From the NCBI GenBank assembly GCA_900321005.1, contig ONUF01000015.1, positions 1,414 through 65,413 on the forward strand: a stretch of 64,000 nucleotides of DNA, given 5' to 3'. This DNA comes from an uncultured Bacteroidales bacterium. Its GTDB lineage: Bacteria; Bacteroidota; Bacteroidia; Bacteroidales; Paludibacteraceae. Both the position numbers and the translations under genes were made by a program. Below are positions 24,132-54,562 of this stretch, in pieces. Position 1 is the first letter of the stretch. Every line of letters starts with the position of its first letter. The notes under the pieces were generated by a model. It saw only the letters and a program-made list of their open reading frames with translations, made no database searches and had not been told where the DNA came from.

Positions 24132-24132
24132 T

Positions 24133-25440: not shown

Positions 25441-25458
25441 GAACGAATATAAACACCG

Positions 25459-25629: not shown

Positions 25630-25952
25630 AAGTATATATCGACAAGGTGGTATATCAAGTGCTAGATGAGTTCTACGACGCCAGCATGCGAAATCATATT
25701 ACTCTTGATTACCCAACGGTAATTGCTAAGATTGACAGACTGGAGCAAGCAATGTATGATTTTGCTTCCGAAGCGGACAAAGTGAATCATGTGCCTTATA
25801 GAAAAGATTGGCAGGCAGCAGGATATCGCGAGTTATACGTGGAGCATTTTCATTTTGCATACAAAGTATATAGCTTACCTACCGGCGAAACAGTACTCTA
25901 CTACCATGATGCCGTGCATGACACGCTAAACTATAACCCGGAAGATAAATAA
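25626..25952 (+). CDS. ParE/RelE-like toxin-fold protein (108 aa), cassette 1
   Basis: An N-terminal helical hairpin followed by YRELYVEHFHFAYKVYSLPTGETVLYYHDAVH, which fits the RelE/ParE beta-sheet pattern. It is a paralog of 34228-34548. Confidence 0.5.
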   Translation: MKVYIDKVVYQVLDEFYDASMRNHITLDYPTVIAKIDRLEQAMYDFASEADKVNHVPYRKDWQAAGYRELYVEHFHFAYKVYSLPTGETVLYYHDAVHDTLNYNPEDK

Positions 25953-25987
25953 CCTCAAAAAAGGAACAAGTGAAATAATTTATCTAT

Positions 25988-26040
25988 CGAGAATGGACCG
26001 AAGTTGGACCGAGAATGGACCGAAGTTAAATCGAGATTAA
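25988..26040 (+). repeat. 22-nt tandem repeat x2.4 upstream of the giant gene
   Basis: cgagaatggaccgaagttggac cgagaatggaccgaagttaaat cgagattaa. Confidence 0.9.
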
Positions 26041-26099
26041 CCCGTACATATCACGGAAAAACATTAACCAACGCAAATAATTAAATACAAAAAAATATT

Positions 26100-29000: not shown

Positions 29001-32000
29001 GGAAGCGTAACGGGTCATGTCAGCACGAAAGTAACGCTGCCAACGGCGACTCCTAGCACGGGCTATTACTTCACGGGTTGGGAAGTAACCAGCGGAACAG
29101 CAACACTGACTAGCGAGTCGAGCGCGAATGCAGCACAAATCAACGGCATGACAGCCGCTGTGACCGTGCGTGCGAACTTCGCTCCGATTTGGTATCTCAA
29201 GGGTGATTTCAACTCTTGGGGAGAAGGAAATCCGATTGCTCTGGCAAGTGCTACTTCCGGCTCTGTAACTTTGACTACTACGTCGGCTAAATTGTCGAAT
29301 AGCAAGTTTAAGATTTGGAACAAGCAAACAGACACCTATTACCAGAAAGCAAACCATGCTATTACCCGTGCAGCAAATACGGCGAGTGGTGGTTGGACAA
29401 ATGGCGGAACAAGCAACGACATGAAGTTCAACAGCGATGTCATCGGTGATTATATATTTGCTGTGACATTGTCATCCAACATTCCTTCCGCACTAACCGT
29501 CACCTATCCGGCGGCATATACCGTAACGTTCGGCATGGGTACTGGTGGTAGTACGATTACTGCAAGCACACCAAGTGCAGGTGGATCATTCACTTCGGGT
29601 GATTATGTGGCTTCCGGTGCTGATGTGACTTTCACTCAAACAGCTTCTTCAACCGGATACACCTTTACGGGTTGGTACACAACGAAGGATACGGGAGGTT
29701 CTGCTGTTACCGGCATGGGCGTTAGCGACAATGTATTAGAGAACGTCACGGCAAACAAAACCGTTTGGTCACGTTATACCGCTAACAATTATACCGTAAC
29801 GTTTGATAAGAACGGAGGAACAGTAACTCCATCTCCGACCAGCAAGAGTGTGACCTTCGGCTCGGCATATGGTGAATTACCCAGCGGAATGAAACACACA
29901 AGCAAGACCTTCGTAGGATGGTTCACAGAAAGCAGCGGCGGAACACTAGTTACTGCAGAAACTATAGTCAGCACGGCAAGTAACCACACGTTGTACGCAC
30001 AGTACGAGGATGTATACTCTGTGAACGTGGACTTCAAGTGTGGGGGTGCTAAAATCTATCCATCAACGGTTGTGAACGCTTCTCCGACCGCTTTGAGACC
30101 GACCATTACTGCGCCAGAGATCTTCGGTTATAGTTTCGTTAATTGGACCGGTGATGATGTTACTCCTGCAAGTGCGACAAGCGCGACAACAACTATTACA
30201 GCTACCGCAGCAACAACTATTACTGCAAACTATGCTGAAGTTCCAACGGTTTACTTCAAGAACAACCTTGAATGGGATTCCGTATTCGTATCGTTCGATA
30301 TTACGTGGACTACAGCCGGCGAAAAACAAGTGCCCAATAACAGCGGTAAGCCCTATTATGCTATGAAGCAAATTGGTACGACGGATATCTACTATTGCGA
30401 GATTCCGAGCACCTATACTGCCAGCAACTATGCAAGTTGGAGCGCAAATATTGCCTTCGACAACCAGAACTACAACCACAAGGCCACCACTACCCATACC
30501 GGAAATATGACGAGCTTCTACCAAGGCGAGTTCACCGGTCGTGGAGACTTTGACCCGAAAGCTACGTTGTTTATCCCATACAATGGCGATACCGAAGCAC
30601 GTAATGGCGGTACGTTCTACAAGACCGGTTGCTGGATGAAATATAACTCCACCGAATCAGGGTATCAACTGAATATGAATGAGTGGGTAACGGGAGAACA
30701 TGATGATCTGGCAACTCCAAATCTTACTGCTCCAACTGCAGGAGGATACGAGTTCTCTGCTACTGTTAACTTGTCAAATGCTGACTATAGTTATGGTTTC
30801 AAACTATACAAACAATATCAAAAGAACACAACGGATCTTTGGTACACCAATACCGGCACTATTAATGCCAGCACAGAGAGCTTGCCTTGGCATTTCTGGG
30901 CGGGTAGCACTATTACCGAAACTTCTCAACGTTGCGAATTACATACGGAGGCTGTCGGCGACTATAAGATCTCCGTTTCGTTTGCAACGGGTAGGCCGAT
31001 GGTAAATGTCGAGTATCCGACTCAGGTAGGCGATTGGCGTCTGGCTTACAACGACCGTATCGCATGGTCGGGCGACGCACATGCCGCAGATTGGTATATC
31101 TATTCACGCGTTATCAAAGCGAAAGCCGATGCAGAGGATCTCGTATCCTTCTACGTAAGCAAAGCTGTCGGCGCGAACGCGCATATCGAGTTGCAGAAAT
31201 GTACGGATATTAATCCTTCGACCGGCGCAGAGACATGGACCAAACAAGGTGACAATCTTGACCTCTCATCCATCACCGGAACCGGTATCTATAACTTCAA
31301 GGTTACGCAGAATGGAAGCAAAGTCGCTACCGCGGCTTATGATGGAGCTTATGAAGGCAACTTCTACATTCGCACCGATGCTTCGGATGGCGGATGGACG
31401 AACTACATCAGTTCAGGCAAGAACGTAATGACCTATTCGGAGTACGCAAAAGACTACAGCGGCTTCACGCACTACTATATGCGCTTCGTGGAGACCGGTA
31501 CGAACATCAAGTTTTGTATCGCCAACGACTATAGTCCGTGCCTCACGGAGTATTGTATAGACGATGACTATACAGGTGAGTATATCGAGGCTAAGGGCAA
31601 TGTACGCTACATGTGGGATCATCGCACGAATAAAGTCAGCCGCGCGTACATCAGCGGTTCTTCCGTAGTTTCCGACCGATTCCTCGTGCTGGAAGGAAAT
31701 ACCATGATTATGGCGGAAGACGGCACACCTCTGGCTATTGCTGGTCTGAATGCAAACGAGAAGAACTTTGCCGATGACCAGAACTGGATTTACGAAGCAA
31801 CTATTAAGGCAAAGCCAACAGCACGCGTTAAGTTGACTGCTAAGTTCAATAATCAGGTTCAGTACTTCAAGGGTTCAGAAGGTGCGTTTGCAGAAGGAAC
31901 AACTGTACAACTGATCGGCGGTACGGGTGATGACGCATACAAGATACGCGTTATCTATGATTTCAAGACCAACCGATTGGTAGGAGCTTGGCTGCCGGAT

Positions 32001-33493: not shown

Positions 33494-33525
33494 GTGAATT
33501 AGTGAATTAGAGAATTAGAGAAAGG
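33494..33525 (+). repeat. 8-nt tandem array GTGAATTA/GAGAATTA x4 forming the spacer before the 128-aa gene
   Basis: gtgaatta gtgaatta gagaatta gagaaagg, immediately followed by ATG. Confidence 0.9.
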
Positions 33526-34800: not shown

Positions 34801-34830
34801 GATAAACAAAAATAAAAATTATTTAAATCG

Positions 34831-34908
34831 AATTATTGAAATCGAATAATTATAAGTATAATAATTGAAGGCATAATTATTGAGATCGGATTATTCAAAT
34901 CGAATAAT
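34831..34908. promoter_or_regulatory. Array of AATTATTGA motifs including two perfect palindromes (candidate operator sites)
   Basis: aattatt-gaaatcg-aataatt (34831-34851) and attattc-aaatc-gaataat (34890-34908). Further AATTATTGA copies are at about 34874, about 34971 and 34012. Confidence 0.45.
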
Positions 34909-35019
34909 TGTAATTTAATTACGCTTGGAAGCGTAACGCTTAGAGGCGTAATAAGGACGAAAAATATGCAAAATTATTGAAATTTAATTATTTAATTTGC
35001 ATAATTCAAAAAAATGTAG

Positions 35020-35053: not shown

Positions 35054-36220
35054 ATGGATAAAATCACCAACCCATTTATCGTACAAGGCGACATCCCCGA
35101 GGCGTATTTCTGCGACCGCGAAAAGGAGACAGAGCATTTGATACGGTATATAACAAACGGCAATAATGTCGTTCTGTCTGCTCCGCGGCGCGTCGGGAAA
35201 AGCAAACTGATTGCACACTGCTTTGCACAACCGGAGATTAAAAAGCATTACTACACCATCTTCGTGGATATTCTGCAGACCAACAATCTGCAGGAGTTCA
35301 CATACGAATTGGGAAAAGCCGTGTTTGGAATTACCGGTTCTCTCGGCAGTAAGATGCTGAAGTTATTCGGGCAAACCGTTCACTCGCTACGTGGAGAATA
35401 TACGATAGACCCGATGACGAATCTGCCTAAATTCAGCATGGCTCTCGGGCATATCGAAAATCCGACATATACCATAGAGGAGGTGTTCGAGTTTCTCGAA
35501 AAAGCCGACAAACCATGTATTGTGGCGATTGACGAGTTTCAGCGCATAGCTCAATATCCGGAGAAGAATGTAGAGGCTATTCTGCGCACACATATCCAGC
35601 GTATGCGTAATTGCAACTTTATTTATGCCGGTTCTGAAAGACACCTATTGGGCCAGATGTTCTTAGACTATAACCGTCCCTTCTATCAGAGCTCGTCCAT
35701 GATGAACTTGGAAAAGATAGAGCGAAACAAATATAGCGCTTTTGCCGTCAAGCATTTTAATGAGTTCGGGAAGAGCATCACCGAAGAGAATGTCAACCGC
35801 GTATACGATTTATTCGACGGCAACACGTTCGCGATGCATAAAACGCTGAACGTAGCCTTCTCTATCACGCCGGAAGGGAACGAATGCGATCTACCTACCC
35901 TTCGCAAAGCGATAGAGAACATCTTGGGCGAAAGCGACCACGATTTTCGCGCCAGATTGATGCCTATGAGTTTGCCGCAAAAAGAAGTACTCTACGCGAT
36001 TGCACGCAGCGGCATTGCTACGCAGATTACCGGCGCTGATTTCTTAAAAAAGCACCATTTAGGTTCCTCCAGTTCTGTACAATCGGCGGTTCGCAAACTG
36101 CTGGCAGACGGATGGATTACAGAGTACTACAATGCTGATGGTAAGAAATGCTATCAGCTATACGACTATTTCCTGACCCTGTGGATTCAGCAGAATTACG
36201 GAAGAGGATACGAATTATAA
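35054..36220 (+). CDS. ATP-binding protein, Arch_ATPase (PF01637)/DUF234-like
   Basis: Start trimmed to MDKITNPFIVQG. Walker A SAPRRVGKS, Walker B IVAIDEFQ and a C-terminal winged-helix-like region. Confidence 0.7.
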   Translation: MDKITNPFIVQGDIPEAYFCDREKETEHLIRYITNGNNVVLSAPRRVGKSKLIAHCFAQPEIKKHYYTIFVDILQTNNLQEFTYELGKAVFGITGSLGSKMLKLFGQTVHSLRGEYTIDPMTNLPKFSMALGHIENPTYTIEEVFEFLEKADKPCIVAIDEFQRIAQYPEKNVEAILRTHIQRMRNCNFIYAGSERHLLGQMFLDYNRPFYQSSSMMNLEKIERNKYSAFAVKHFNEFGKSITEENVNRVYDLFDGNTFAMHKTLNVAFSITPEGNECDLPTLRKAIENILGESDHDFRARLMPMSLPQKEVLYAIARSGIATQITGADFLKKHHLGSSSSVQSAVRKLLADGWITEYYNADGKKCYQLYDYFLTLWIQQNYGRGYEL

Positions 36221-36253
36221 TTGATTATTGATGATTGATAATTGAAAATTAGT
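36219..36253 (+). repeat. Heptamer array AATTGAT-family x5 forming the ATPase-panD spacer
   Basis: aattgat tattgat gattgat aattgaa aattagt. It overlaps the TAA stop of the ATPase gene. Confidence 0.9.
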
Positions 36254-40897: not shown

Positions 40898-41866
40898 ATG
40901 AGAAGAAATATAGCCATTATTGCCGGCGGAGACAGCAGCGAACATGAGGTGTCGCTTCGTTCGGCGGCAGGTATCTATTCCTTTATGGACAAGGAGCGCT
41001 ACGATTGCACGATCGTGGTGTTTGACGGTAAGAATTGGCACACCGAAGCCGGTGAGCCGATCGATAAGAACGATTTTTCTTTTACGCGCGGGGGCGTGAA
41101 GCACACCTTCGATTTCGCGTACATCACGATACACGGTACGCCGGGCGAGAACGGCATTCTGCAGGGATACCTCGACATGATCGGCATGCCTTACTCCTGC
41201 TGCGGAGTCTTGGCCGCAGCGCTGACGTTCAACAAGTACGCCTGCAACCACTACCTGTCGTATTTCGGATTCCATATCGCGAACAGCATGATGCTGCGTA
41301 AGGGGCAGAAGTTGCCCAACGCGCCGAAGATTGCGGAGACCTTAGGTCTGCCCTGTTTCATCAAATCGAACGTGGGCGGTTCGAGTTTCGGTTGCACGAA
41401 AGTGAAGACCGTCGAAGAGGTCTATCCCGCTATCGAGCGCGCGTTCCAAGAAGGCGACGAGGTGATCTGCGAGTCGTTTATGCAAGGCACGGAGGTGACC
41501 TGCGGCGTCTATAAGACGAAGGACAAAGCGGTGGCTTTCCCCATCACGGAGGTCGTCACGCACAACGAGTTCTTCGACTATAACGCGAAGTACAAAGGCG
41601 AGGTCGATGAGATCACACCGGCGCGTATTCCGGATGCGGTGCGCGACAAAATCCAAGCCGAGACACTGCGTCTGTACGACATCATCGGCGCACAGGGCAT
41701 CATCCGCGTGGATTGGATTATTACGGGTGACAAGATCAACCTCCTTGAAGTGAATACGACGCCGGGAATGACACCGACGAGTTTTATTCCGCAGCAAGTA
41801 AGAGCCGCGGGGCTCGACATAAAGGACGTGCTAACGGATATTATCGAAAACAAGTTTTCGAATTGA
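40898..41866 (+). CDS. ddl: D-alanine--D-alanine ligase
   Basis: Start trimmed to MRRNIAIIAGGDSSEHEVSLRSA, followed by an ATP-grasp region (GGSSFG, EVNTTPGMT). Confidence 0.9.
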   Translation: MRRNIAIIAGGDSSEHEVSLRSAAGIYSFMDKERYDCTIVVFDGKNWHTEAGEPIDKNDFSFTRGGVKHTFDFAYITIHGTPGENGILQGYLDMIGMPYSCCGVLAAALTFNKYACNHYLSYFGFHIANSMMLRKGQKLPNAPKIAETLGLPCFIKSNVGGSSFGCTKVKTVEEVYPAIERAFQEGDEVICESFMQGTEVTCGVYKTKDKAVAFPITEVVTHNEFFDYNAKYKGEVDEITPARIPDAVRDKIQAETLRLYDIIGAQGIIRVDWIITGDKINLLEVNTTPGMTPTSFIPQQVRAAGLDIKDVLTDIIENKFSN

Positions 41867-41895
41867 TAATTGATGATTGATAATTGATGATTGAT
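41861..41895 (+). repeat. Heptamer array AATTGAT/GATTGAT x5 containing both the ddl stop and the next gene's start
   Basis: aattgat aattgat gattgat aattgat gattgat. TGA is at 41864-41866 and ATG at 41887. Confidence 0.92.
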
Positions 41896-42855
41896 ATTAT
41901 CAAGGAAATAGAGAATCTGGATTGGAGCAAGGAGCCGAAGGGGCTGTATGAACCGATTGCGTACACCTTGGCTTCCGGCGGGAAGCGTTTGCGTCCCACC
42001 CTCGCCCTGATTGCGGCGGAGGTGATTATGAACGAAGGTCTGCTGAACGGCGATGCGATAGAACATACCGTACCGGCGGCGTTGGCGCTGGAGATTTTCC
42101 ATAACTTCACGCTGCTGCACGACGATGTGATGGACCGCGCAGCGGTTCGCCGCGGAAGACCGACCGTGCACGTAAAATGGAATGACAACACCGCGATCCT
42201 TTCCGGCGACCAGATGCTCATCGAGGCCTATAAGCAATTGGCGCAAGTGCCGGCAGACAAGTTACCGCAAGTGCTGAGATGGTTCAACGAGATGGCGACG
42301 GGAATATGCGAGGGGCAGCAGTATGACGTGGATTTCGAGCACCAGCGCCAAGTAAGCATCGAGGACTACATGATGATGATTGAGAAGAAGACCTCCGTGC
42401 TGATTGCCAATGCGCTGCGGACGGGCGGATATATCGCCGGTGCGAACCCTGCGCAACAGGAAGCGCTCTACCAATACGGCCTGCATATCGGTTTGGCGTT
42501 CCAGATCCAAGACGATATATTGGATGTGTACGGTGACCCGAAGACTTTCGGCAAAGCTATCGGCGGCGATATCTGCTGCAACAAAAAGACCATCCTGTTG
42601 CTCACGGCGCTGGAGCAGGCCGACGATCAGACGAAAGCCGAGTTGCAGCAGTGGCTCGATGTTTCCGACCGCGATGCGGAGAAGATTGCCACCGTGACGG
42701 AGCTGTACAACCGCTTGGGAGTACGCGAACGCGTAGAAGAAGTGATGGAGCAACATACCGCTCTGGCGCTCGCGCAACTCGATAAGTTGCCGCAGAACGC
42801 CGCTTGCGAGAAGTTGCGTACGCTCGCCGAGCGGCTCGTCACGCGAAAGAGTTAA
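41887..42855 (+). CDS. Polyprenyl diphosphate synthase (trans-IPPS family)
   Basis: FHNFTLLHDDVMD and FQIQDDILD aspartate-rich motifs. I prefer the ATG at 41887 over the TTG at 41884. Confidence 0.85.
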   Translation: MIDIIKEIENLDWSKEPKGLYEPIAYTLASGGKRLRPTLALIAAEVIMNEGLLNGDAIEHTVPAALALEIFHNFTLLHDDVMDRAAVRRGRPTVHVKWNDNTAILSGDQMLIEAYKQLAQVPADKLPQVLRWFNEMATGICEGQQYDVDFEHQRQVSIEDYMMMIEKKTSVLIANALRTGGYIAGANPAQQEALYQYGLHIGLAFQIQDDILDVYGDPKTFGKAIGGDICCNKKTILLLTALEQADDQTKAELQQWLDVSDRDAEKIATVTELYNRLGVRERVEEVMEQHTALALAQLDKLPQNAACEKLRTLAERLVTRKS

Positions 42856-42882
42856 AGAATTAAAGATTAAAGAATTAAAGAT
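42853..42882 (+). repeat. 7/8-nt array TAAAGAAT/TAAAGAT x4 forming the whole spacer
   Basis: taaagaat taaagat taaagaat taaagat, then ATG. The first unit holds the TAA stop. Confidence 0.9.
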
Positions 42883-43650: not shown

Positions 43651-44227
43651 TGACGCGATGCACGTTATGATCGCGGAAGAGATGCGGGATGTCGTGTTTC
43701 TTTAACTGGAACGCATAGCAGATACCGAATTTCTTCACTCCCGGGTGCTTACGAAGGAACTTATCGTAATACCCGCCGCCGCGACCGATACGGTGACAAT
43801 GGTGATCAAACACCACGCCGGGGACAAGCATCAAGTCGATAGGACCTTTCCAAGTCGGCGTCTGGGGTTCGGGAACGCCCAAACGACCCTTACGCATCAT
43901 GTCCTCGCCGTCATAGGGACGGACCTCTATCGAATAACGATGGGTGACAGGGAAAAGGAAAGTTTTTTGATCCTGATACTTGGCGAGCAGCGGACGAAGG
44001 TCCACCTCGTTATGCACAGGGTAATAGATGAGCACCGTTTGGGCATCGCGGAAAGCAGCCATCTGCTCAATCTGCGCACAGATACGCGCAGAGTCCGCAG
44101 CGACATCCTCGGGCGACAACATACGACGACGCTGCTCCACAATAGCGCGAAGCGCGGCCTGCTCGCGACGGATTCGCACCCACGGAAGCCAGGACTTGAT
44201 GTCATGTATTTGAGAGTCGAACAACAT
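43625..44227 (-). CDS. 5-formyltetrahydrofolate cyclo-ligase
   Basis: LIYYPVHNEVDLRPLL and DLMLVPGVVFDHHCHRIGRGGGYYDKFL. Its 3' end overlaps the convergent gene by 26 nt. Confidence 0.82.
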   Translation of the reverse strand: MLFDSQIHDIKSWLPWVRIRREQAALRAIVEQRRRMLSPEDVAADSARICAQIEQMAAFRDAQTVLIYYPVHNEVDLRPLLAKYQDQKTFLFPVTHRYSIEVRPYDGEDMMRKGRLGVPEPQTPTWKGPIDLMLVPGVVFDHHCHRIGRGGGYYDKFLRKHPGVKKFGICYAFQLKKHDIPHLFRDHNVHRVITPQQTIG

Positions 44228-44262
44228 GTGTAATGTGTAATGTGTAATGTGTAATGTTTAGT
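44228..44262. repeat. Heptamer array GTGTAAT x4 plus GTTTAGT
   Basis: It starts at the nucleotide next to the minus-strand start codon (cat 44225-44227). It belongs to the same family as 52139-52166. Confidence 0.92.
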
Positions 44263-44267
44263 GGTTT

Positions 44268-44275
44268 TACCTTTG
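44268..44275 (+). promoter_or_regulatory. -7 box TACCTTTG
   Basis: ggtttTACCTTTGcgggtgcaaagg, 30 nt before the ATG at 44305. Confidence 0.55.
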
Positions 44276-44304
44276 CGGGTGCAAAGGTACAAAAAAAAAT
44301 TGAT

Positions 44305-45645
44305 ATGCGCAAATATTTCTATATATTATTGTCGATTTTTCTCGTGAGCCTCACCGGTTGCGAGGGCGGAGGCAGTGCTTCGGTTCCTTCATCCGTAGCC
44401 AAACTGAGTGTGTTCTACTTCGCGGCGAATGATTCGAATCCGGGTTTGGCGGAGGCGGTCTTCACGATTGAGGAGCGCCTGGACACGGGTTTGGTTTGGA
44501 ACAAAGACTCGATGCTTTTCGGTACGCGTTTGGACAGCGTCGTGCCCAAGTTCTCCTTCGCGGCTACGCCGAGTGCGGCCTACCTGCATATGAAGGACAC
44601 GTTCATCGCGCTCTCGGGTTACGACACGCTGGATTTCAACGTAAGGCCTATCTACCTCACGATTCGTTCCGGCGACCGCTCGACTATCAAAACCTATGAG
44701 ATACGCGCGACCGTGCATCAGGCGGATCCGGACCTCTATACATGGGATGTCCTCACGCCGCAGATATACGAGGTTGAAGACAGCGAGCAGAAAGTAGTGG
44801 AGTTAGACGACAGCTTCGTGCTCATCAAGTCCAACGGTTTTGCGCTGCGCGCGTACCAGTCCGAAGACGGAGCCGAATGGCTCGACCTCGGTAGCCCCAC
44901 CGGTCTGCCGGCCGGCACGAAGGTACGCCAGATGATCAGCGACGGCAAAACACTGTACTACGGTCAGGACAACAAGATATACACCAGTACGGATGCCGTC
45001 ACATGGACTGCGCATACCGTGAACTATCCCGTCGTGACGATGCTGATGTACTGGAACAACCTGATTTGGGCATTAGTAGAAAACAACGGTTATGAGTTGG
45101 CATGGTGGGAGGACGAGGCATTAGCGCTGAGCGGCATGCGTCCGCAAGGCTCGTTCCCCGTAAGCGATTTCGGTACGGTGGTGTTTCAGAGTGCGAGCCT
45201 GCGCGAACGCGCGATGATCATCGGCGGCTATGCCGACAACGGCGAGTCGCTTAACACGCGCTGGAACTTCGAGTACTCGACCCATCCTATGCCGAAGGGC
45301 GAATACCGCATGGAGGAGTTCTCGATTGACCGACCGAAGTTCACCCGTCTGACCGGCATCTCCGTCATCTGGTACAACAACCGGTTGATGATGTTCGGCG
45401 GCGTGGATGAGAAGATGAGTTATCTCGGCCGCGAGATCCTGATCTCCGAGGACGAGGGCCTCAACTGGACGAAAGCCGACTCGACGAAGAACCAGTTGCC
45501 GGAAGTGTATCGCGCAAGGCAGAAACAGACGGCTATCGTGCGCGGCAACTACATCTACCTCTTCGGAGGACAGGATGCGGACATCTCCTATAGCGATGTC
45601 TATCGGGGATATCTGAACTCCATCGGATGGAATTCAAACAATTAA
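44305..45645 (+). CDS. Hypothetical lipoprotein with a C-terminal Kelch/beta-propeller-like region
   Basis: Start trimmed to MRKYFYILLSIFLVSLTGCEGG (lipobox). Later repeats resemble IIGGY...W and LFGGQD. Confidence 0.5.
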   Translation: MRKYFYILLSIFLVSLTGCEGGGSASVPSSVAKLSVFYFAANDSNPGLAEAVFTIEERLDTGLVWNKDSMLFGTRLDSVVPKFSFAATPSAAYLHMKDTFIALSGYDTLDFNVRPIYLTIRSGDRSTIKTYEIRATVHQADPDLYTWDVLTPQIYEVEDSEQKVVELDDSFVLIKSNGFALRAYQSEDGAEWLDLGSPTGLPAGTKVRQMISDGKTLYYGQDNKIYTSTDAVTWTAHTVNYPVVTMLMYWNNLIWALVENNGYELAWWEDEALALSGMRPQGSFPVSDFGTVVFQSASLRERAMIIGGYADNGESLNTRWNFEYSTHPMPKGEYRMEEFSIDRPKFTRLTGISVIWYNNRLMMFGGVDEKMSYLGREILISEDEGLNWTKADSTKNQLPEVYRARQKQTAIVRGNYIYLFGGQDADISYSDVYRGYLNSIGWNSNN

Positions 45646-46915: not shown

Positions 46916-47341
46916 ATGGACGTAGTAGGTAAGATTATTCAGGTATTGCCGGCACAGGAAGGTATCGGCAAAAACGGCAATCCGTGGAAGGTACAGCCGT
47001 ACGTATTGGAGACGCTGGATCAATATCCCCGCAAGGTACATTTCGAGGTGTTTGGCGAGGACCGTATCAAGCAGAATCCGTGCGATGTAGATCAGTTAGT
47101 AACCGTCAGTTTCGATATCGAGAGCCGTGAGTTCAACGGCCGTTGGTACACCTCTATCCGCGCTTGGCGTATCCAGCAGGGCGATATGACGCAAGCCGTT
47201 CCGGGCGCAGCGCCTGCTGTAGCACCCGTAGCGGCTCCGCAACCTGCGGCAGCTCCTGCAGCTCCTGTAGAGGCTGCTCCGGTGAATATGGATCCGTTTG
47301 ACGCTTCGGCCGGCGAAGGCACGAGTGACCTGCCCTTCTGA
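46916..47341 (+). CDS. DUF3127-like small OB-type protein with an Ala/Pro-rich tail
   Basis: GNPWKVQPYVLETLDQYPRKVHFEVFGED...VSFDIESREFNGRWYTSIRAWRI matches the remembered DUF3127 pattern. Confidence 0.55.
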   Translation: MDVVGKIIQVLPAQEGIGKNGNPWKVQPYVLETLDQYPRKVHFEVFGEDRIKQNPCDVDQLVTVSFDIESREFNGRWYTSIRAWRIQQGDMTQAVPGAAPAVAPVAAPQPAAAPAAPVEAAPVNMDPFDASAGEGTSDLPF

Positions 47342-48300
47342 TGCGTAAGTGGCTACTCATAGTATTAGCTATCATCCTGTTAGCGGTGGGCACAGTGATA
47401 TGCGCCTACCGCTGGCAGGCATGGTTCGTCACACCCGCTGAACCCGCTTGGACGGGGGACACGTTGCAAGACGTATTCCAGACACCGGACTCGACGAACG
47501 ACAGCATTGAGACCATCTTGGTGCTCGGCGATATCCACAGCCGTCTCACGCGTGCGGACTATGACCTGTTGGCAGCGCGCGTGCCGGATGCAGACCTCGT
47601 GATGCAGGTCGGCGACTGGATGGACCGCGGACAGGAGTATTACCGTCAATTGTTGCTGCGCGAGTGGACGAACAGCGCGTTGAACGGTCTGCCCGTCATT
47701 GCGTGCCCGGGAAACCACGAGTACACCAAAGGTGTACATAAGCACTTGTCAGAGGCCTGGAGCGAGACGTTCCGTCATCCGAATAACGGGCCGGTAGGAG
47801 TGCCGGGCGCCAGTTACTGGCTCGACATCCCGCGGATGCGCGTCATCGTGATTGATACCAACCCCTTGTCGCATGTCGTGTATCTGACGCGTACGCTGAC
47901 ATGGTTACGCGAAGCGATGTACAGCGCCGGCGACCGCGCCGTGGTGGTGATGATGCACCATCCGGTATTGTCTGCCGCCAAAGGTCGCGCGAACCCCGCT
48001 ATCTACAGCACATTCCGCTATGCGCTGAGTCAAGCCGACCTGGTGATCGCGGGACATGATCATTTCTATGCCCGCCGCACGCCCTTCGTGATGCTCAATA
48101 CTGCCGGCAAGGCCAAGAAACAGAAGACCAAACTGCATGCCGAGGTATGCGACAGCGTAGCGGTGTACGGGGTACTCAGTATTCAGCGGTCAGCAATCAG
48201 TGATCAGCGATCAGCAATCAGTGATCAGCCGTTAGTATTCAGCATTCATCGCATGAGCGACGGCGTCGCTATCGATACCATCTATGTTAAGCACGACTGA
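47341..48300 (+). CDS. Calcineurin-like metallophosphoesterase
   Basis: GDIHS, GDWMDRG, GNHEY, MHHP and GHDHF motifs. There is an N-terminal TM anchor. Confidence 0.8.
   Translation: MRKWLLIVLAIILLAVGTVICAYRWQAWFVTPAEPAWTGDTLQDVFQTPDSTNDSIETILVLGDIHSRLTRADYDLLAARVPDADLVMQVGDWMDRGQEYYRQLLLREWTNSALNGLPVIACPGNHEYTKGVHKHLSEAWSETFRHPNNGPVGVPGASYWLDIPRMRVIVIDTNPLSHVVYLTRTLTWLREAMYSAGDRAVVVMMHHPVLSAAKGRANPAIYSTFRYALSQADLVIAGHDHFYARRTPFVMLNTAGKAKKQKTKLHAEVCDSVAVYGVLSIQRSAISDQRSAISDQPLVFSIHRMSDGVAIDTIYVKHD
48181..48250 (+). repeat. In-frame heptamer array (about 10 units, RATCAGY family) inside the phosphoesterase CDS
   Basis: attcagc ggtcagc aatcagt gatcagc gatcagc aatcagt gatcagc cgttagt attcagc attcatc. 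It encodes IQRSAISDQRSAISDQPLVFSIH. Confidence 0.92.
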
Positions 48301-49137: not shown

Positions 49138-49472
49138 TGGAGTCAACTAGACAACACAAGATCGCTCGTCTGATTCAAAAGGACATGAGCGACATTCTTT
49201 TACGGTACGCGCGCACTTTGCATGGGACATTGATTTCCGTGAGCGAGGTGCGCGTGTCGCCTGATCTCTCTATTGCGCATATCTATCTGTCTATCTTTCC
49301 GCAGGACAAGGTAGCTCAGACGATGACGCTTATTGAGGAGAACACGCATCGCTTTCGCGGTGAACTCGGCACGCTTGAGCGCCATCAATTGCGTATTATT
49401 CCGGAAATAGTCTTCCATTTGGACGAGACGATTGACCGAATGGAGCGCATTGATGAGTTGCTCCATGCCTAA
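49137..49472 (+). CDS. rbfA: Ribosome-binding factor A
   Basis: RQHKIARLIQKDMSDIL...VSEVRVSPDLSIAHIYLSIF. Its start overlaps the rpmH stop (TAATG). Confidence 0.85.
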   Translation: MESTRQHKIARLIQKDMSDILLRYARTLHGTLISVSEVRVSPDLSIAHIYLSIFPQDKVAQTMTLIEENTHRFRGELGTLERHQLRIIPEIVFHLDETIDRMERIDELLHA

Positions 49473-50679
49473 TTTAGAATCCCATATTGCCTGGCGGTAC
49501 CTTTTCTCGAAGAAAGGGCATAACGCCATCAACATCGTCTCCGGCATCAGCGCGGCGGCAGTTGCTGTCGTGACGGCGGCGATGATTTCAGTATTATCCG
49601 TGATGAACGGATTCGGCACGCTGGTGGAGCACATGTTCTCGGAGTTCGATCCGGTGCTATTGGTCGTTCCGACCGAAGGAGCCACCTTACGCACCGACAC
49701 CGCGCCGATTATTTCTTTATACGCGCGCGAGGACATCGAGGCTATCTCCATGCAACTGGAGCAGACCGCGCTTATTCGCTACAAGGACCATCAGACGCCG
49801 GCGCGCGTGATGGGTGTGGACAGTCTGTTTACGCAAACCGCGCATATCGACTCGATCATTTCCGACGGTTTCTATTCGGTATGGGACGGCGCTTTCGACC
49901 GCGTGACGATGGGTAGAGGTCTGGCGGCTCAGATAGGTATGAACGCGCATTTCACGGGGGCGTTACACCTCTATGCGCCGCAGCGCACGGGACGCATCAA
50001 CATGATGCGACCGGACTTGAGTTTGAACCACGAGCATGCCTTCATCGCCGGCACGTTTGCCGTGAACCAGGTCGAATATGACGACCAGTTACTCCTTGTC
50101 TCCCTACCCCTCGCACAACGGCTCTTCGACTATGACGAGTTTACGGCAAGTGCACTGCGAATAGCAATCAGTAATCAGCAATCAGTAATCAGCAAATCTG
50201 AAATCTCTAAGATTTTAGGGCCCGGTTACAAAGTTTTGGATCGCTATGAGCAGCAGGCGAGTTTCTTCAATATCTTGCGCATTGAGAAACTGCTGACGAT
50301 CTTGTTACTCGTCTTCATCTTGCTGATTGCGAGCTTTAATATTATCGGTTCGCTCTCGATGCTGATTATCGACAAGCGCGAAGACATACAGATTCTTTCG
50401 CACTTAGGCGCAGACGAAGCGACGATTCGCCGTGTGTTCCTGCTCGAAGGATGGTTTATCTCTTCGCTGGGTGCATTGATAGGACTTATCGCCGGCGTGC
50501 TGCTGTGCCTCGGTCAGCAACATTTCGGTTGGTTGAAATTAGGCAGCGGCGCGGAGTACGTGATCTCCGCCTATCCGGTACAGGTACAGGTGCTCGACAT
50601 CGTGCTGGTAGCCGCGATTGTACTGGCGTTGGGTTTCGCCGCCGCTCTTTATCCCTCCCGCAAAATACAAATCCAATGA
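49465..50679 (+). CDS. FtsX/MacB-type permease, LolE-like
   Basis: I prefer the start MPNLESHIAWRYLFSKK. It has four TM segments, a periplasmic domain and a C-terminal FtsX region. Confidence 0.75.
   Translation: MPNLESHIAWRYLFSKKGHNAINIVSGISAAAVAVVTAAMISVLSVMNGFGTLVEHMFSEFDPVLLVVPTEGATLRTDTAPIISLYAREDIEAISMQLEQTALIRYKDHQTPARVMGVDSLFTQTAHIDSIISDGFYSVWDGAFDRVTMGRGLAAQIGMNAHFTGALHLYAPQRTGRINMMRPDLSLNHEHAFIAGTFAVNQVEYDDQLLLVSLPLAQRLFDYDEFTASALRIAISNQQSVISKSEISKILGPGYKVLDRYEQQASFFNILRIEKLLTILLLVFILLIASFNIIGSLSMLIIDKREDIQILSHLGADEATIRRVFLLEGWFISSLGALIGLIAGVLLCLGQQHFGWLKLGSGAEYVISAYPVQVQVLDIVLVAAIVLALGFAAALYPSRKIQIQ
50163..50204 (+). repeat. In-frame heptamer array (6 units) inside the LolE-like CDS
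   Basis: agcaatc agtaatc agcaatc agtaatc agcaaat ctgaaat. It encodes AISNQQSVISKSEIS. Confidence 0.92.
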
Positions 50680-51248
50680 GAAAAGCACTATATATCGGAT
50701 TACTTGGATTGTTCGGCATACTCGGGTTGAGTTCTTGCCGGAAATCGACGTCGATCACCTATCGCACCATGCCAAAGGAGTATGTGTTGGCATGGGAAGA
50801 GATCTACGGGCATGCCTATGACTCCGTGCCGTATCCCGTGGTTGCGCTGGATCTGTACTCCAAGGGGCTGGAACTCGATGCCGACCACCACATGCGGGGT
50901 ACGGGCTATAACCTCTATATCTCCGATATCTTTGTGCCGGTAAGCTACGGCGAGGACACCTTGCGTCTCGTAGCCGGCAAGTATCATAGCGAGCGCACGG
51001 CGCAACCATTCACTTTCCTGCCCGGCAAGAGTTGGGACGGTCAACCGACGGGTATGTACGTGCTGTATGTGGAGAACGGCAAGTTACAAACGATTCAGAT
51101 GCTGGATTCCGGCTATATCGTGGTCAAAGATACGACATCCATGTTCAAAGACATCGAGTTCACGCTCTATTATAAAAACTCGTACGGTTCGCGGGCTACC
51201 TACAAGCCGCATTTTCAAGGATACCTTCGCCCGTGGGAAAAACGATAA
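50676..51248 (+). CDS. Hypothetical lipoprotein (190 aa)
   Basis: Start trimmed to MRKALYIGLLGLFGILGLSSCRKS (lipobox). It overlaps the upstream stop (ATGA). Confidence 0.55.
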   Translation: MRKALYIGLLGLFGILGLSSCRKSTSITYRTMPKEYVLAWEEIYGHAYDSVPYPVVALDLYSKGLELDADHHMRGTGYNLYISDIFVPVSYGEDTLRLVAGKYHSERTAQPFTFLPGKSWDGQPTGMYVLYVENGKLQTIQMLDSGYIVVKDTTSMFKDIEFTLYYKNSYGSRATYKPHFQGYLRPWEKR

Positions 51249-52144
51249 CATCGGATGCAGAGCTTCGGCGCGAGTACCATACGTGGTTGCGTCTGGAGCG
51301 CGGTTATTCACCGAACACCATCGAGGGCTACGAGATGGACCTCGACAAGCTGCGTGCGTACGGCGAGGAGCATCACGTGGATATCGTGCACATGAGTTTT
51401 GACGAGTTACAAGAGTGCATCTTTACGCTCTTCAAAGATGTTCGTTCCGAAGGAACACAGGCCCGTATTCTCGCGGGTATACACTCGTGGTTTCGCTTTC
51501 TGCTGTACAAAGACTATATTGACCAAGACCCTTCGGAACTGTTGGAAGGGCCGCGTAAGTCCAAACACCTGCCGACGGTGCTCTCGCTGGATGAGGTGAA
51601 CCGGATGATGGCGGCGATCGACCTGAGCAGCAACGAAGGTCACCGCAACCGCGCGATGATGGAGATGCTCTACGGCAGCGGTCTGCGCGTGAGCGAGTTG
51701 GTCAATCTGCAGTTGAGTAAGATATACCTTCACGAACATTACATGCTGATAGAGGGCAAGGGCTCGAAACAACGCCTTGTGCCGCTCTCGCCGGTAGCCG
51801 AAGAATGGTTCGGGTACTGGATGCAGGAACGTGCGACCTGGCCGCTCAAGCCCGAGTCGAAGGATATCGCGTTTGTCAACCGTTACGGTAGGCCGATGAC
51901 GCGGGCGATGGTCTTTACTATCGTACGTAAGCTCTGCGCCGAGGCAGGTATTACCAAGACGGTGAGTCCGCATACGCTGCGTCACTCTTTCGCAACCCAC
52001 CTGCTGCAGAACGGCGCCGACCTACGCGTGATACAGCAACTGCTGGGACACGAAGACCTGGCGACTACCGAGATATACACGCATATTGATGTCCAAGACC
52101 TGAGAAAAGCCATACTTCAATGTCATCCGGCGAATAAAGTGTAA
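51233..52144 (+). CDS. xerD: Site-specific tyrosine recombinase XerD
   Basis: GTG start. LERGYSPNTIEGY and HTLRHSFATHLLQNGADLRVIQQLLGHEDLATTEIYTH. It is embedded among core genes. Confidence 0.85.
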   Translation: MGKTITSDAELRREYHTWLRLERGYSPNTIEGYEMDLDKLRAYGEEHHVDIVHMSFDELQECIFTLFKDVRSEGTQARILAGIHSWFRFLLYKDYIDQDPSELLEGPRKSKHLPTVLSLDEVNRMMAAIDLSSNEGHRNRAMMEMLYGSGLRVSELVNLQLSKIYLHEHYMLIEGKGSKQRLVPLSPVAEEWFGYWMQERATWPLKPESKDIAFVNRYGRPMTRAMVFTIVRKLCAEAGITKTVSPHTLRHSFATHLLQNGADLRVIQQLLGHEDLATTEIYTHIDVQDLRKAILQCHPANKV

Positions 52145-52166
52145 TGTGTAAGGTGTAGTGTTTAGA
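52139..52166 (+). repeat. Heptamer array of the GTGTAAT family containing the xerD stop and the next gene's GTG start
   Basis: gtgtaat gtgtaag gtgtagt gtttaga. TAA is at 52142-52144 and GTG at 52158. Confidence 0.9.
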
Positions 52167-54509
52167 CGTTTTTTCATATTGTTGCTGCTGATTCTCTCAC
52201 TGCCTGTCATGGCCGTGGAGACGATTATCGTCGGCGAGATCGTCGATGAGGTGACGGGCGAGGCGATACCGAATGTGAATATCCATTTCCGGGGCACGAA
52301 GATCGGTACGACCTCTGACGAGCACGGCAACTACATGCTGCGCGTGGATATGAGCGCGAAGAGTCAGTTGGTTTTCTCCGCCGTCGGCTATTATACCCAG
52401 CGCTTCGATGTGGAACCCGGCGTGATGGCGGGACTGCAAGTGGCGATGCGGGAGAAGACCGCCACGCTGACGGAGATCGTCGTATCGCCGAATGAGAACC
52501 CCGCCTTAGCGATTTTACGCCAGGTACGGGAGCACCGCGACGCGAACGACCGCACCCAGCATCCGGAGAACGGTATGGTAGCGCAGCGCGAGCAGACGCT
52601 CTATGTCTCGCATATCACCCGCCGGCACTTGCGCCGCGCGCTATGGAAGAGTCTGCAGGCCGGTATGATTGCGCAGGAGGACTCGACGTATATCCTGCCG
52701 CTCTACCGCGAGACGCAGTCTTTCCGCCTTGCGGGACAGGAGATGATTCCCGCCAATGACCAGCGCACGCAGGCACTCATCCTCTCCGAGACAGACTATT
52801 CGGCATTGCTCGGCGGCGAAGGCAACCTTAACTTTTACGCACCGTCTGTCAGCCTCATGGGCCACGCTTTCCTCTCTCCTCTCGCCGCCGGCGGAAATCT
52901 GTATTATAGGTATTATATAGATGAGCAGTCAGTAATCAGTGATCAGTCTTCAGCGGTACGCATCACCTTCCGCACCAGAAATCCGTTCTACGCGACGTTT
53001 AACGGCGAGATGGTCATTGATACCGCGACGTATGCGTTACGCGCGCTGAAGGCCTATGTGCCGCCGGAGGTGGCCGTCAATTACGTGAATGACATTCATG
53101 TCGCGCAGACCCTCACGCCTGACGGCTTTATCGCCGAAGAGACGATCTCGGCGCTGCTCGATTTCACGGTCAAGAGCGAGAAAGCCGGCTCGGTCTTTCC
53201 GTCGGTACTATTGACGACGAGGCTGAAGAATGATGCAGCGAAGCTGCCTAATGATACGAGTCAAGACTCGTCTAATGATGAGCCAAAGGCTCTGAATGAT
53301 GATGCCGACTCCGCTTTTGCGGCGCTGGACAGTCTGCCGATTATGCGCGCGGCGAAGTTCTTCGCGACGATTGCTACGACGGGATATATTCCGACGGGTA
53401 CGCCGGTCGATATCGGTCATGTAGAGGAGATCTTGCAGGTCAACCAGCACGAGACGGTGCATGTCGGTTTGCCGTTCCGCACGAACGAGAAACTGTCGAA
53501 GGTCGTGTCGTTAGAGGCTTCGGTGGGGTACGGATTCAAAGACCGCTCGTTCAAAGGTATGGGGCGCGTGTCCGTGAACCTGCCGACGGAAAGGAAGAAC
53601 ATCCTGCAGTTTGAGTACAACGACCATTACGTATGGTCGGAGGTGGATGATTTCGACCGGATGCTACGGGAGAACTCCATGGGTTGGGGCAATTTCGACT
53701 TCACGGCGTACGCTTTTCAGGCGCTATATAGAGATCCTCTCTGCGTCAATACGGCTATTCGCCAGCGGCAGTTCCAGTTCCATTGGTTTGCCGACTGGAT
53801 TCATCAGATGGACACCCGTAGCGGTGCACCGATGAGTATAGAGAGTCATTTCTTTGCCCGCGCGGGTTGGCAGGCGGATTATGCCTATCAGTCGGCGCAT
53901 GCGATCGCGCGTCTCAGTTGGGGCGAGCGCAAGTACGACGGGTATTTCATGCGCCGCTACGCCTATTCGTCCCGTTATCCGGTGCTGTACGTAGGCGCAG
54001 AAGCCGGGCACTGGTCCGATGCCGAACATTCGAAGATCTACCTGCATCTGCGGGCGATGTTGACGCAGCACGCGAACCTCGGCATGGGCGGTACGCTGAC
54101 GTATGCTTTCCAGACGGGTATCATCCTGGGCCAAGTGCCGACGACGCTCTTATGGCAGGCGAATGCGAACCAGGGCTATGCGTATGATCCCTATCGCTTC
54201 ACGTTTTTGCACGGCAACCAACTGTTGGCGAACCGCTATGTGGCGCTGCAGACCGAATGGAACGGCATGGGCATCTTGTTCAACATGATTCCCGGCGTGC
54301 GCTGGTTGCATCTGCGCGAGTTAGTAGAAGCCAAGATCGCCTACGGGTCGAGAGGCTCGACACCCGAACTGCCATCCGGTAGCCTTCTTTATTCGGAAGT
54401 CGGAGTTGGTATCGGCAATATATTACGTATCTGCGATCTCTATTCTATTTGGTCTATTACGCCGAATGTTCAGTGGGGACTTCGCTTCCGGATTCACTTA
54501 GGGTTGTAG
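52158..54509 (+). CDS. Carboxypeptidase-regulatory-like domain plus DUF5686-type outer-membrane protein
   Basis: A signal peptide followed by IVGEIVDEVTGEAIPNVNIHFRGTKIGTTSDEHGNYML (CarboxypepD_reg). The remainder is large and beta-rich. Confidence 0.6.
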   Translation: MFRRFFILLLLILSLPVMAVETIIVGEIVDEVTGEAIPNVNIHFRGTKIGTTSDEHGNYMLRVDMSAKSQLVFSAVGYYTQRFDVEPGVMAGLQVAMREKTATLTEIVVSPNENPALAILRQVREHRDANDRTQHPENGMVAQREQTLYVSHITRRHLRRALWKSLQAGMIAQEDSTYILPLYRETQSFRLAGQEMIPANDQRTQALILSETDYSALLGGEGNLNFYAPSVSLMGHAFLSPLAAGGNLYYRYYIDEQSVISDQSSAVRITFRTRNPFYATFNGEMVIDTATYALRALKAYVPPEVAVNYVNDIHVAQTLTPDGFIAEETISALLDFTVKSEKAGSVFPSVLLTTRLKNDAAKLPNDTSQDSSNDEPKALNDDADSAFAALDSLPIMRAAKFFATIATTGYIPTGTPVDIGHVEEILQVNQHETVHVGLPFRTNEKLSKVVSLEASVGYGFKDRSFKGMGRVSVNLPTERKNILQFEYNDHYVWSEVDDFDRMLRENSMGWGNFDFTAYAFQALYRDPLCVNTAIRQRQFQFHWFADWIHQMDTRSGAPMSIESHFFARAGWQADYAYQSAHAIARLSWGERKYDGYFMRRYAYSSRYPVLYVGAEAGHWSDAEHSKIYLHLRAMLTQHANLGMGGTLTYAFQTGIILGQVPTTLLWQANANQGYAYDPYRFTFLHGNQLLANRYVALQTEWNGMGILFNMIPGVRWLHLRELVEAKIAYGSRGSTPELPSGSLLYSEVGVGIGNILRICDLYSIWSITPNVQWGLRFRIHLGL
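52923..52957 (+). repeat. In-frame heptamer array (5 units) inside the DUF5686-like CDS
   Basis: gagcagt cagtaat cagtgat cagtctt cagcggt. It encodes EQSVISDQSSAV. Confidence 0.9.
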
Positions 54510-54513
54510 AAAT

Positions 54514-54555
54514 AATAGATAATAGATAATAGATAATAGTTAATAGATAATAGTT
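54514..54555 (+). repeat. Heptamer array AATAGAT/AATAGTT x6 after the stop codon
   Basis: aatagat aatagat aatagat aatagtt aatagat aatagtt. Confidence 0.92.
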
Positions 54556-54562
54556 AAAAAAG

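Follow-up and report, generated by a model that had tools for sequence, protein, structure and literature searches.

Cyanobacterial STRR (short tandemly repeated repetitive) sequences, reportedly described by Mazel et al. in 1990, are said to be dispersed tandem heptamers with genome-specific unit sets that lie mainly between genes and serve as fingerprinting targets. Non-triplet simple sequence repeats (SSRs) inside genes are a classical phase-variation device, and genic Borg repeats reportedly have units divisible by three. Long SSRs of prokaryotes, with units of 5-11 nucleotides (nt), were surveyed by Mrazek, Guo and Shah (2007, as summarised in PMC4679880); according to that summary, heptanucleotides were the most abundant, richness was lineage-specific, non-triplet units were depleted from coding sequence and polymerase slippage was the proposed origin. 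The closest described system is the TAACTGA heptamer of marine Beggiatoaceae, some Cyanobacteria and five Bacteroidetes, including Paludibacter propionicigenes (MacGregor 2015, PMC4679880). These repeats lie mostly a few nt upstream of start codons, in a forward orientation that stops all three frames, and the copies within open reading frames (ORFs) are reversed and stop-free, read LSVISYQ and sit at tolerant positions or protein peripheries (PMC4679880). Here, we describe heptamer arrays in a 64-kb window of contig ONUF01000015.1, from an uncultured Bacteroidales bacterium of the Paludibacteraceae, and at loci from the contigs of relatives (given L-numbers) that were compared with it. The arrays are probably heptanucleotide SSRs produced by slippage and homogenisation and filtered by selection in a repeat-rich group of rumen Paludibacteraceae.

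Three genes of the window carry an array in frame, as an earlier note on this DNA had stated, and the sequences and translations were confirmed. The first array (48176-48250, + strand) lies in a gene for a calcineurin-like metallophosphoesterase (MPE; 47341-48300, + strand, 319 amino acids (aa), Pfam PF00149), which overlaps the start of recO (identified by Pfam) at 48284. It consists of about 10 TCAG-phased units (TCAGTAT, TCAGCGG, TCAGCAA, TCAGTGA, TCAGCGA, TCAGCAA, TCAGTGA, TCAGCCG, TTAGTAT, TCAGCAT) arranged as two 21-nt super-units with degenerate flanks, and it encodes residues ~280-298, SIQRSAISDQRSAISDQPL, within the translation LSIQRSAISDQRSAISDQPLVFSIH. Tandem Repeats Finder (TRF) called it both with period 7 (6.7 copies, 77% match) and with period 21 (2.6 copies, 90% match), in keeping with the earlier observation that the stop-bearing unit variant recurs every 21 nt. 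The second array (50163-50204, + strand; TRF period 7/14) has 4-5 units, TCAGTAA and TCAGCAA in alternation followed by ATCTGAA, and is translated as AISNQQSVISKSEIS in an FtsX/MacB_PCD permease of the LolC/E/F type (49432-50679, + strand; Pfam, with PDB LolF and LolC matches at E ~1e-26 to 1e-23), called LolE below. The third (52923-52957, + strand) has 4 TCAG-phased units, translated as EQSVISDQSSAV, in a loop of varying length that is flanked by the motifs YYRYY and FRTRNPFY of a CarboxypepD_reg + DUF5686 protein (52158-54509, + strand; Pfam). TRF called period 7 each time. On TRF evidence the DUF5686 array would be weak (score 31), but support comes from the exact TCAG phase of its units and from the relative L085, which has a homologous array. 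An assembly artefact was ruled out, as identical arrays are present in four independent assemblies (L081-L084), of which L081, L082 and L084 stem from the rumen samples ERZ27317986, ERZ28594428 and SRR30827625.

The pattern TCAGNNNTCAGNNNTCAG matched 14 times at exactly five sites of the window (19069, 24139, 48176, 50168 and 52929), all on the + strand, and was absent from 100 dinucleotide-preserving shuffles of the window. The genic arrays and two intergenic ones form one motif family, as had been proposed. Of the intergenic pair, the TCAGTAG/TCAGCTT/TCAGTAT array (19064-19094, + strand) lies 31 nt past the stop of gene 18172-19032, and the TCAGTGA/TCAGTAA array (24129-24163, + strand) starts on the stop codon of a phosphorylase-like gene (21570-24131) and has no open frame among six. 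At the MPE, LolE and DUF5686 arrays, six-frame translation showed the coding frame to be the sole open frame of six. Because 7 and 3 are coprime, every trinucleotide of a perfect heptamer array appears in all three frames, and the genic arrays are open only because every third unit is altered, with CGG/CGA/CCG, CAA or TCT in place of an in-frame TGA/TAA. The claim that all three genes use the single open frame is thus correct as far as the frames go, but their agreement is tautological: where one frame is open only through altered units, its use by the host gene is forced and is not an independent coincidence. The stop-bearing type to which these three arrays belong is rare; their coding strand contains TAA/TGA, and one unit in three is altered.

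A census was made of the window and 80 loci (1.47 Mb; 1.53 Mb in total) found by scanning species-representative genomes. The loci cover ~20 kb per genome around one syntenic region and come almost all from rumen or gut metagenome-assembled genomes of Paludibacteraceae or Bacteroidales, the MPE homologues being labelled Paludibacteraceae; gene models and start codons were heuristic calls from ORFs and codon usage (90% coding). Period 7 topped all periods, with 458 TRF rows against 48, 143, 178 and 161 for periods 6, 8, 9 and 11, and 234 of the 458 rows were intergenic or at gene edges even though only ~10% of the DNA is non-coding. Merging of overlapping rows gave 425 arrays; 176 of them adjoin a start codon, at a median distance of 3 nt, and 126 have a stop on one side and the next start on the other. 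A stop trinucleotide is present in 126 of the 176 start-abutting arrays (72%) in the orientation of the downstream gene, compared to 66 (37.5%) on the other strand. The arrays comprise 157 canonical heptamer units, and strong arrays occur at 1.4-2.5 per 10 kb over most of the clade, where the spacing of arrays is roughly one every 3 kb. The earlier picture of a CAGYRAT-specific element does not survive this census, since the phenomenon is clade-wide, mainly non-coding (start-codon leaders) and made of many units. No strong heptamer arrays were found in L066-L070, L072, L079 and L080 (8-21 kb of syntenic DNA each, mostly at 43-47% GC), and this absence makes array richness a trait of lineages.

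Arrays are also in large excess within genes. Predicted coding sequences (CDSs) hold 246 period-7 arrays, compared to 17.6 in codon-shuffled controls of the same genes (~14-fold), and 81 compared to 0 at TRF scores of at least 44. Period 9, although compatible with the frame, is less common than period 7 (139 vs 58 in controls). The excess is located where the proteins are least constrained, as judged from 61 strong arrays lying well inside genes with at least 8 orthologs: identity to orthologs was 22% in the array window and 74% in the whole protein, the gap fractions were 27% and 4.6%, the array windows had a median at the 2.5th percentile of conservation, and 77% of the arrays were in the bottom 5% of windows. 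Where the unit of a strong, deep array can bear a stop in one orientation only, 46 arrays were stop-free and 5 stop-bearing (p = 2e-9), a p-value that overstates independence because orthologous arrays are counted separately and the truly independent cases are fewer. A tabulation of intragenic orientation had been suggested as a check, and across the loci of the clade it showed a strong bias, in support of the idea that arrays survive only where the frame or orientation is open. The companion idea, that arrays are seeded inside genes, needs revision, the arrays being old and homologous across relatives. On the coding strand, units have little G and usually include TCA (such as AATCTCA, AATCACC and ACAAATC), and the encoded peptides are rich in S/Q/I/N/T/H/P, such as SQISNLK and NHQSPIT. 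The exceptions to the stop-free orientation follow the rule seen in the earlier note: in the ATTGAAG array of LolE in L001, L002, L019 and L037, the third unit is ATTTAAA, turning the in-frame TGA into TTA. All length differences between genic alleles are multiples of 3 (0, 15, 21 and 48 nt), of which 15 and 48 are not multiples of 7; a whole-unit copy-number step separates the window from its close relative L089, the two differing by exactly 21 nt, or 3 units. Selection for an open frame and orientation is real and general.

At the MPE site, the surroundings of the array and its history could both be followed. An AlphaFold2 model (mean pLDDT 72.8) gave residues 284-295, between strands 275-281 and 298-304, a pLDDT below 50, so the array forms the predicted tip of a C-terminal β-hairpin. 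In L001-L005, 48 nt are absent at the array site, with L001 and L002 ~87% identical to the window at nt level in the gene, and more distant orthologs have loops of 4-21 aa. Several of the loops in other lineages are built from other heptamers, namely CTTCAAT (L006-8), CCAATCA (L023), CAAATTT (L029), CATCAAT (L010) and AATCACA (L047), and lag-7 autocorrelation was above the 99th percentile of the loop's own gene in 8 of 34 long MPE loops. The arrays of closer relatives form a homologous series in which the TCAG phase is fixed and the last three bases vary. L089 has one 21-nt super-unit, and the window and its same-species loci L081-L084 have two as an exact tandem duplication; L085 carries TCAGTAT TCAGCCG TCAGAAT TCAGAAC, and L090, with an array of equal length, has three TCAGAAG units where L085 has the TAT, CCG and AAT units. 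In L091, AATCACC arrays are split by unrelated sequence. The MPE arrays of the window, L089, L085 and L090 all begin ATTCAGC.GTCAG, and CAGYRAT seeding specific to the window was ruled out at this site, as TCAG arrays are common to L085, L089 and L090. Identity outside the loop is 83-88% among the window, L089, L085, L090 and L001/L002 and ~79-80% for L091; with such similar values, the presence and absence of the array do not follow a clean clade split.

As RNA, the MPE array was also predicted to form a long, imperfectly paired hairpin (-17.8 kcal/mol, z = -4.1, reached by 0 of 200 shuffles), which owes its stability to TGATCA palindromes (containing GATC) created at the unit junctions. The array stops 34 nt short of the point where recO starts (48284). 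Such a hairpin might favour slippage, but it is not a property common to the arrays: RNA structure as a shared feature was ruled out, since the LolE and leader arrays do not fold well.

The LolE permease aligned end to end with LolF and LolC from the PDB, and its array falls on the segment that follows the 'vRLKL' strand (in LolF, DDIFAAPQVADDIVKNL), which we take to be a loop plus helix of the periplasmic Porter subdomain. This segment is 18 aa long in 36 of 45 orthologs and 17 aa in the window, so there is no insertion here, contrary to the earlier view of the site. Nearly all orthologs share the 7-nt periodicity. Mean lag-7 identity of the segment was 0.48, compared to 0.24 in control windows of the same genes, 38 of 45 segments were above the control 99th percentile, and lag-3 identity was below control. 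The units differ across orthologs and include ATTGAAG, CAAATCA, AAATCTC, CAAATAT, CAAAAAT/CTGAAAT, CAGCCGT/CAGAAAT and TCAGTAA/TCAGCAA. Within the species of the window the site is dimorphic, the window and L083 having the TCAG array and L081 and L082 a non-repeat allele like that of L005, with linked differences in the flanks. The allele of the window resembles that of L003/L004; seeding of CAGYRAT specific to the window was ruled out at LolE as well, given this homologous allele and the clade-wide 7-nt periodicity of the site. The ATTGAAG arrays of L002 (12776-12829) and L019 differ at 1 of 54 nt between flanks that are ~75% identical, whereas the window and L002 are ~88% identical overall and 43-54% identical at the array, which makes the array the best-conserved part of the gene in one comparison and the worst-conserved part in the other. 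These contrasts indicate that alleles move between lineages or are retained across them, and the near-identity of L002 and L019 at the array suggests either that this patch was recombined or that the allele is under selection.

The remaining genic sites also differ from one another. The DUF5686 loop is 6-29 aa long in orthologs, with a TCAG array in the window and L085 only and a shorter, non-repeat loop in L001 and L002. An ancient array site was not supported here, as the loop is 7-periodic in 1 of 28 orthologs, and DUF5686 is the one site that fits a lineage-specific origin. Two further arrays named in the earlier note are real and stop-free on the coding (-) strand: a CAATCAT array (21235-21266), which encodes DNHQSSIINQQ in an RNB/S1 ribonuclease gene, and an AATCTCC/AATCTTC array (6561-6591), which encodes KSSISNLQSPI in an ORF with a PcrB (GGGPS) domain. 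The DDNHQSSIINQQ encoded by the RNB array is absent from 92-95% identical relatives, and in others the same loop reads DQSPITNDQSPI, QLTANNQQPI, NGQWTMDN or LKSEITNLKYPV. The MPE and RNB arrays are therefore not fresh seeds, as had been thought, but lie in hypervariable loops that hold different heptamers in other lineages, and so at old array-bearing sites. Insertion, which the earlier note had suggested, is supported by relatives that lack the MPE segment at ~87% nt identity and the RNB segment at 92-95% protein identity, and it does not hold at LolE. The word 'inserted' is thus true of some sites only; the arrays are old and homologous across relatives, and their motif is one of many.

Other features were seen in the same two genes. 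The RNB homologues start at MISEQEIL, so a TCAGAAA x2.3 array called by TRF at 21415-21430 (- strand), directly upstream of the probable true start (MISEQ...), is a leader array. A second hypervariable segment, KPSNPNNPSIPNS, lies at 20908-20938 in the same - strand gene (20081-21433) and is encoded by a 9-nt repeat, TCGGATTAC x3.4. RNB proteins that are 92-100% identical vary in length, largely in 3-aa steps (421, 424, 427, 430; 436, 439, 442, 445). The ORF at 5591-6748 (- strand) joins the PcrB/GGGPS domain (residues 11-225) to a TadA-like cytidine/adenosine deaminase domain (243-385). In L053 and L076 the deaminase is a separate ~145-aa protein; the ORF of the window is either a fusion or contains an unrecognised internal start.

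In the mechanism that we favour, misaligned (slipped) synthesis or repair in a 7-nt register would create arrays and turn them over. MutS-dependent repair in E. coli handles loops only up to ~4 nt, so 7-nt loops would escape it. Mrazek et al. suggested that 7 nt matches the contact length of the polymerase, as summarised in PMC4679880. Non-coding arrays would be free to change, mostly in spacers of a few dozen bases that separate a stop from the next start, and genic arrays would last only where nearly any polar peptide is tolerated, as in hairpin loops and the periplasmic surface segment of LolC/E. Purifying selection on genic arrays would work in three ways: it would keep the orientation whose unit has no stop trinucleotide; in stop-bearing arrays it would favour alteration of the unit that places TGA/TAA in frame, giving a 21-nt (7-aa) super-period; and it would let lengths change only in multiples of 3 nt, as a rule by three units (21 nt). 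Since the change of a single unit in a gene shifts the frame, only two kinds of event can be fixed there, a three-unit change or a net-zero event. In the latter, a segment would slip out of register between two loops, one on either strand; this would amount to conversion within the array and would homogenise units without net change in length, leaving different heptamers at one site in different lineages. Net-zero conversion seems to be needed for the three identical units of L090 compared with three different ones in the equally long L085, and for four identical heptamers in the fixed 54-nt LolE segment; independent point mutation was considered for both and found implausible. Recombination between related rumen lineages would transfer whole alleles and account for those that are shared and those that are dimorphic.

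Several points weigh against this reading. Slippage was deduced from assembled sequences, and no +/-7 variants were seen among them. Pure slippage hardly homogenises the units of an essential gene without frameshifted intermediates, which is why a conversion step is invoked. Separate sites of one genome share more identical unit pairs than expected (40 vs 13.2 +/- 3.7, a value that 0 of 400 shuffles reached); strictly local slippage does not predict such sharing, which hints at ectopic conversion, a shared or genome-specific bias, or function. The near-identity of one LolE array allele across distant genomes could mean selection on the sequence itself. The gene models and start codons are heuristic, and orthologous arrays are not statistically independent. 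A broader version is unlikely, namely that a lineage-specific process actively writes and re-homogenises 7-nt periodic DNA at constant length, even in essential CDSs, by register-shifted templated repair or by conversion within or between arrays, possibly tied to a component of the replisome or repair machinery, with inheritance of the periodicity instead of the sequence at sites such as the LolE segment and with the leader arrays acting as translation leaders independent of the Shine-Dalgarno (SD) sequence. Leader arrays may conceivably provide C-poor, unstructured leaders in these SD-less bacteria.

The excess of unit sharing would also be expected if pre-formed arrays were written into many loci by ectopic conversion, by a process templated by reverse transcription or single-stranded DNA, or by a mobile element, with the genic copies as survivors. 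This account, a strong form of the seeding idea of the earlier note that we regard as unlikely, would further explain why the 64-kb window has five TCAG-phased sites and the 1.47 Mb of other loci only 20, why whole array alleles are common to several species and dimorphic within one, and why richness depends on lineage, down to the array-free loci listed above. Several observations speak against it. A search for inverted repeats around the three genic arrays gave two 10-11-nt pairs of chance level at MPE and none elsewhere, with no terminal inverted repeats flanking the arrays and no element-like ends at the borders of alignment indels; a mobile element or MITE (miniature inverted-repeat transposable element) is thus not indicated and was rejected. 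The shared phase and flanks (ATTCAGC.GTCAG) of the four MPE arrays show that they diverged in place, the window last changed by duplicating 21 nt in tandem at the site itself, the constant length of the LolE site is not insertion-like, and allele sharing follows more simply from ordinary homologous recombination among related rumen lineages. A function of the nucleic acid is quite improbable; arrays would then serve translation initiation (or another regulator) as binding sites or stretches of low structure, and the genic copies would be functional elements overlapping CDSs, the MPE array, for example, acting as a recO leader. It draws on the 176 of 425 arrays that end within a few nt of a start codon, on the predicted lack of structure in leader arrays (folding z ~0 to +0.9) and on the position of the MPE array, which stops 34 nt before the start of recO. 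Bacteroidetes initiate translation without SD and have less structure upstream of starts (PMC3155529), and MacGregor proposed translational regulation for the TAACTGA repeats (PMC4679880). Such a role does not extend to the LolE, DUF5686, RNB and PcrB arrays, whose nearest starts are hundreds of nt away; relatives in which MPE and recO overlap in the same way have no array, the MPE array is structured, and 157 canonical units argue against a sequence-specific binder.

Selection at the level of the protein would make the DNA periodicity a by-product of a peptide with a 7-aa period, in which I/V/L residues 3-4 positions apart form an amphipathic helix or extend a β-hairpin. The LolE segment does align to the loop-plus-helix that follows a β-strand in LolF/LolC and is conserved in length, peptides such as KISNLKSQISN have heptad-like hydrophobic spacing, and one LolE allele is 98% conserved across distant genomes. 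However, a 7-aa period needs no 7-nt periodicity, yet the latter is what the LolE segment displays (lag-7 identity 0.48, with lag-3 below control), the same units occur in non-coding spacers, the peptides at one site are wholly different or missing between lineages, and the MPE segment has a pLDDT below 50; we therefore consider this explanation highly improbable. It is barely credible that the arrays are contingency loci, in which the gain or loss of units switches the host genes on and off. They share with the classical device that they are non-triplet SSRs within genes, but the hosts are housekeeping genes (the LolC/E-type permease, the RNB ribonuclease and MPE), the frame is intact in the four contigs of the same species (L081-L084) and in all relatives that were compared, and the length differences are all multiples of 3. 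No frameshifted allele was found among 120 MPE and 120 RNB homologue clusters or in the same-species contigs, and phase variation was ruled out on this basis.

The TRF table of the window contains seventeen period-7 arrays, with units AATTGAT, ATGTGTA, ATAATAG, AAAGGAG, ATTGAAG and TCAGNNN. An example of the non-coding class that forms the majority is the AATTGAT x4.6 array at 12104-12135 (+ strand), which fills the 43-nt spacer from stop to start between genes 10840-12102 and 12146-13414. Further stop-to-start spacer arrays lie at 36213-36250, 41861-41896, 42846-42881 (8-mer), 44226-44257, 52135-52161 and 33496-33522 (8-mer), and trailer arrays at 24129 and 54512-54557. The spacer arrays of the window are allelic between relatives, and those of relatives that are 85-97% identical differ in both the number and the type of units. 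Ahead of gene 44254-45645, the spacer at 44226-44257 consists of (TGTGTAA)x4 both in the window and in L003, which is more distant, and in L081, of the same species and with flanks ~97% identical, it is a wholly different sequence that is one base from that of L001. With L081 like L001 and the window like L003, spacer arrays behave as trans-lineage alleles. An (AAAGGAG)x5 array at 7348-7382 (+ strand) lies in the divergent region between gldD (- strand) and gene 7540 (+ strand); it resembles a Shine-Dalgarno sequence on the + strand, although Bacteroidota are generally without SD-based initiation, and it reads CTCCTTT on the mRNA strand of gldD.

Repeats of other periods are present as well, periods 8 and 11 being over-represented across the clade (143 and 161 TRF rows). 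In the window, an AT-rich non-coding stretch at 24800-26100 holds successive 8-nt and 11-nt arrays (25094, 25138, 25181, 25236, 25349 and 25986) upstream of a 2459-aa Listeria-Bacteroides-repeat (Flg_new) protein at 26100-33479, and a 14-nt repeat x6.9 lies at 34817-34914, upstream of an ATPase_2 gene. GC falls to 42-47% over ~24-36 kb of the window, which suggests an acquired island. A HEPN-domain protein (24379-24771) follows the array at 24129, and a XerC/D-type tyrosine recombinase (51233-52144) lies between the LolE-type and DUF5686 genes, with synteny kept in L085. The partial ORF 2-1570 (- strand), which has no Pfam match, contains 9-nt repeats (TTCGCCGCC on the + strand) at 299-355, 787-814 and 1151-1208 and is an unrelated, triplet-compatible low-complexity protein. 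Rfam at gathering thresholds over the window returned one tRNA (18059-18132) and no known RNA family at the arrays.

These arrays bear on two old questions, why heptanucleotides dominate the long SSRs of scattered lineages and what role STRR- or TAACTGA-type repeats play. Their chief interest lies in the fixed-length coding sites that keep a 7-nt periodicity while units change, along with the dense material they offer on how heptamers arise. The clade is a dense natural dataset, with many alleles in public rumen metagenomes and array-free sister lineages in the same family that provide a natural contrast for finding the determinant of heptamer richness. That determinant, homogenisation at constant length and a role of leaders in SD-less initiation all become testable. 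The arrays provide a concrete route by which non-triplet microsatellites may remodel the surface loops of conserved proteins. They also carry a warning for annotation and alignment, as array segments mimic lineage-specific insertions and inflate apparent divergence.

Our literature searches found no prior description of such arrays in Paludibacteraceae or rumen Bacteroidales, and rumen Paludibacteraceae are not among the taxa named in the PMC4679880 summary of the work by Mrazek and colleagues. Like the long SSRs of that summary, the arrays of this clade have at least 3 head-to-tail heptamer copies beyond chance, change in whole-unit steps and are in excess outside CDSs; unlike them, these non-triplet arrays are enriched 14-fold in CDSs over the codon-shuffled null and persist at coding sites of fixed length. 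They share with STRR sequences the form of dispersed tandem heptamers and differ from them in host, Bacteroidales (Paludibacteraceae) instead of mostly heterocystous cyanobacteria, in units and in occupying in-frame coding segments. With the SSR contingency loci of Haemophilus and Neisseria they have in common non-triplet tandem repeats within reading frames, but those of this clade lie in housekeeping genes, their lengths change by multiples of 3 nt only and none of the alleles seen was frameshifted. The Borg tandem repeats (PMC9879509) likewise evolve fast and add polar, low-complexity, probably disordered peptide at tolerant sites, whereas the unit of this clade is 7 nt, the frame is kept by a 21-nt super-period and the host is a bacterial chromosome. 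The likeness to the TAACTGA repeats goes furthest: the TCAGTAA/TCAGTGA units of the window are one mismatch from TCAGTTA, the reverse complement of TAACTGA, the peptide S-V-I-S-[DN]-Q is nearly the same as LSVISYQ, and many arrays of the clade adjoin a start, most of these being stop-bearing in the forward direction. Stop-free copies within ORFs are the rule in the clade in general but not for the three TCAG[T]RA arrays of the window, which are stop-bearing and kept open by altering one unit in three. The unit is not TAACTGA but TCAG[TC][AG]A and many others, with none favoured, array density is much higher, and the horizontal spread of one heptamer is not needed for the pattern of the clade. 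These arrays also differ in that they lie in the middle of conserved housekeeping proteins, at orthologous sites that keep their periodicity while their units turn over.

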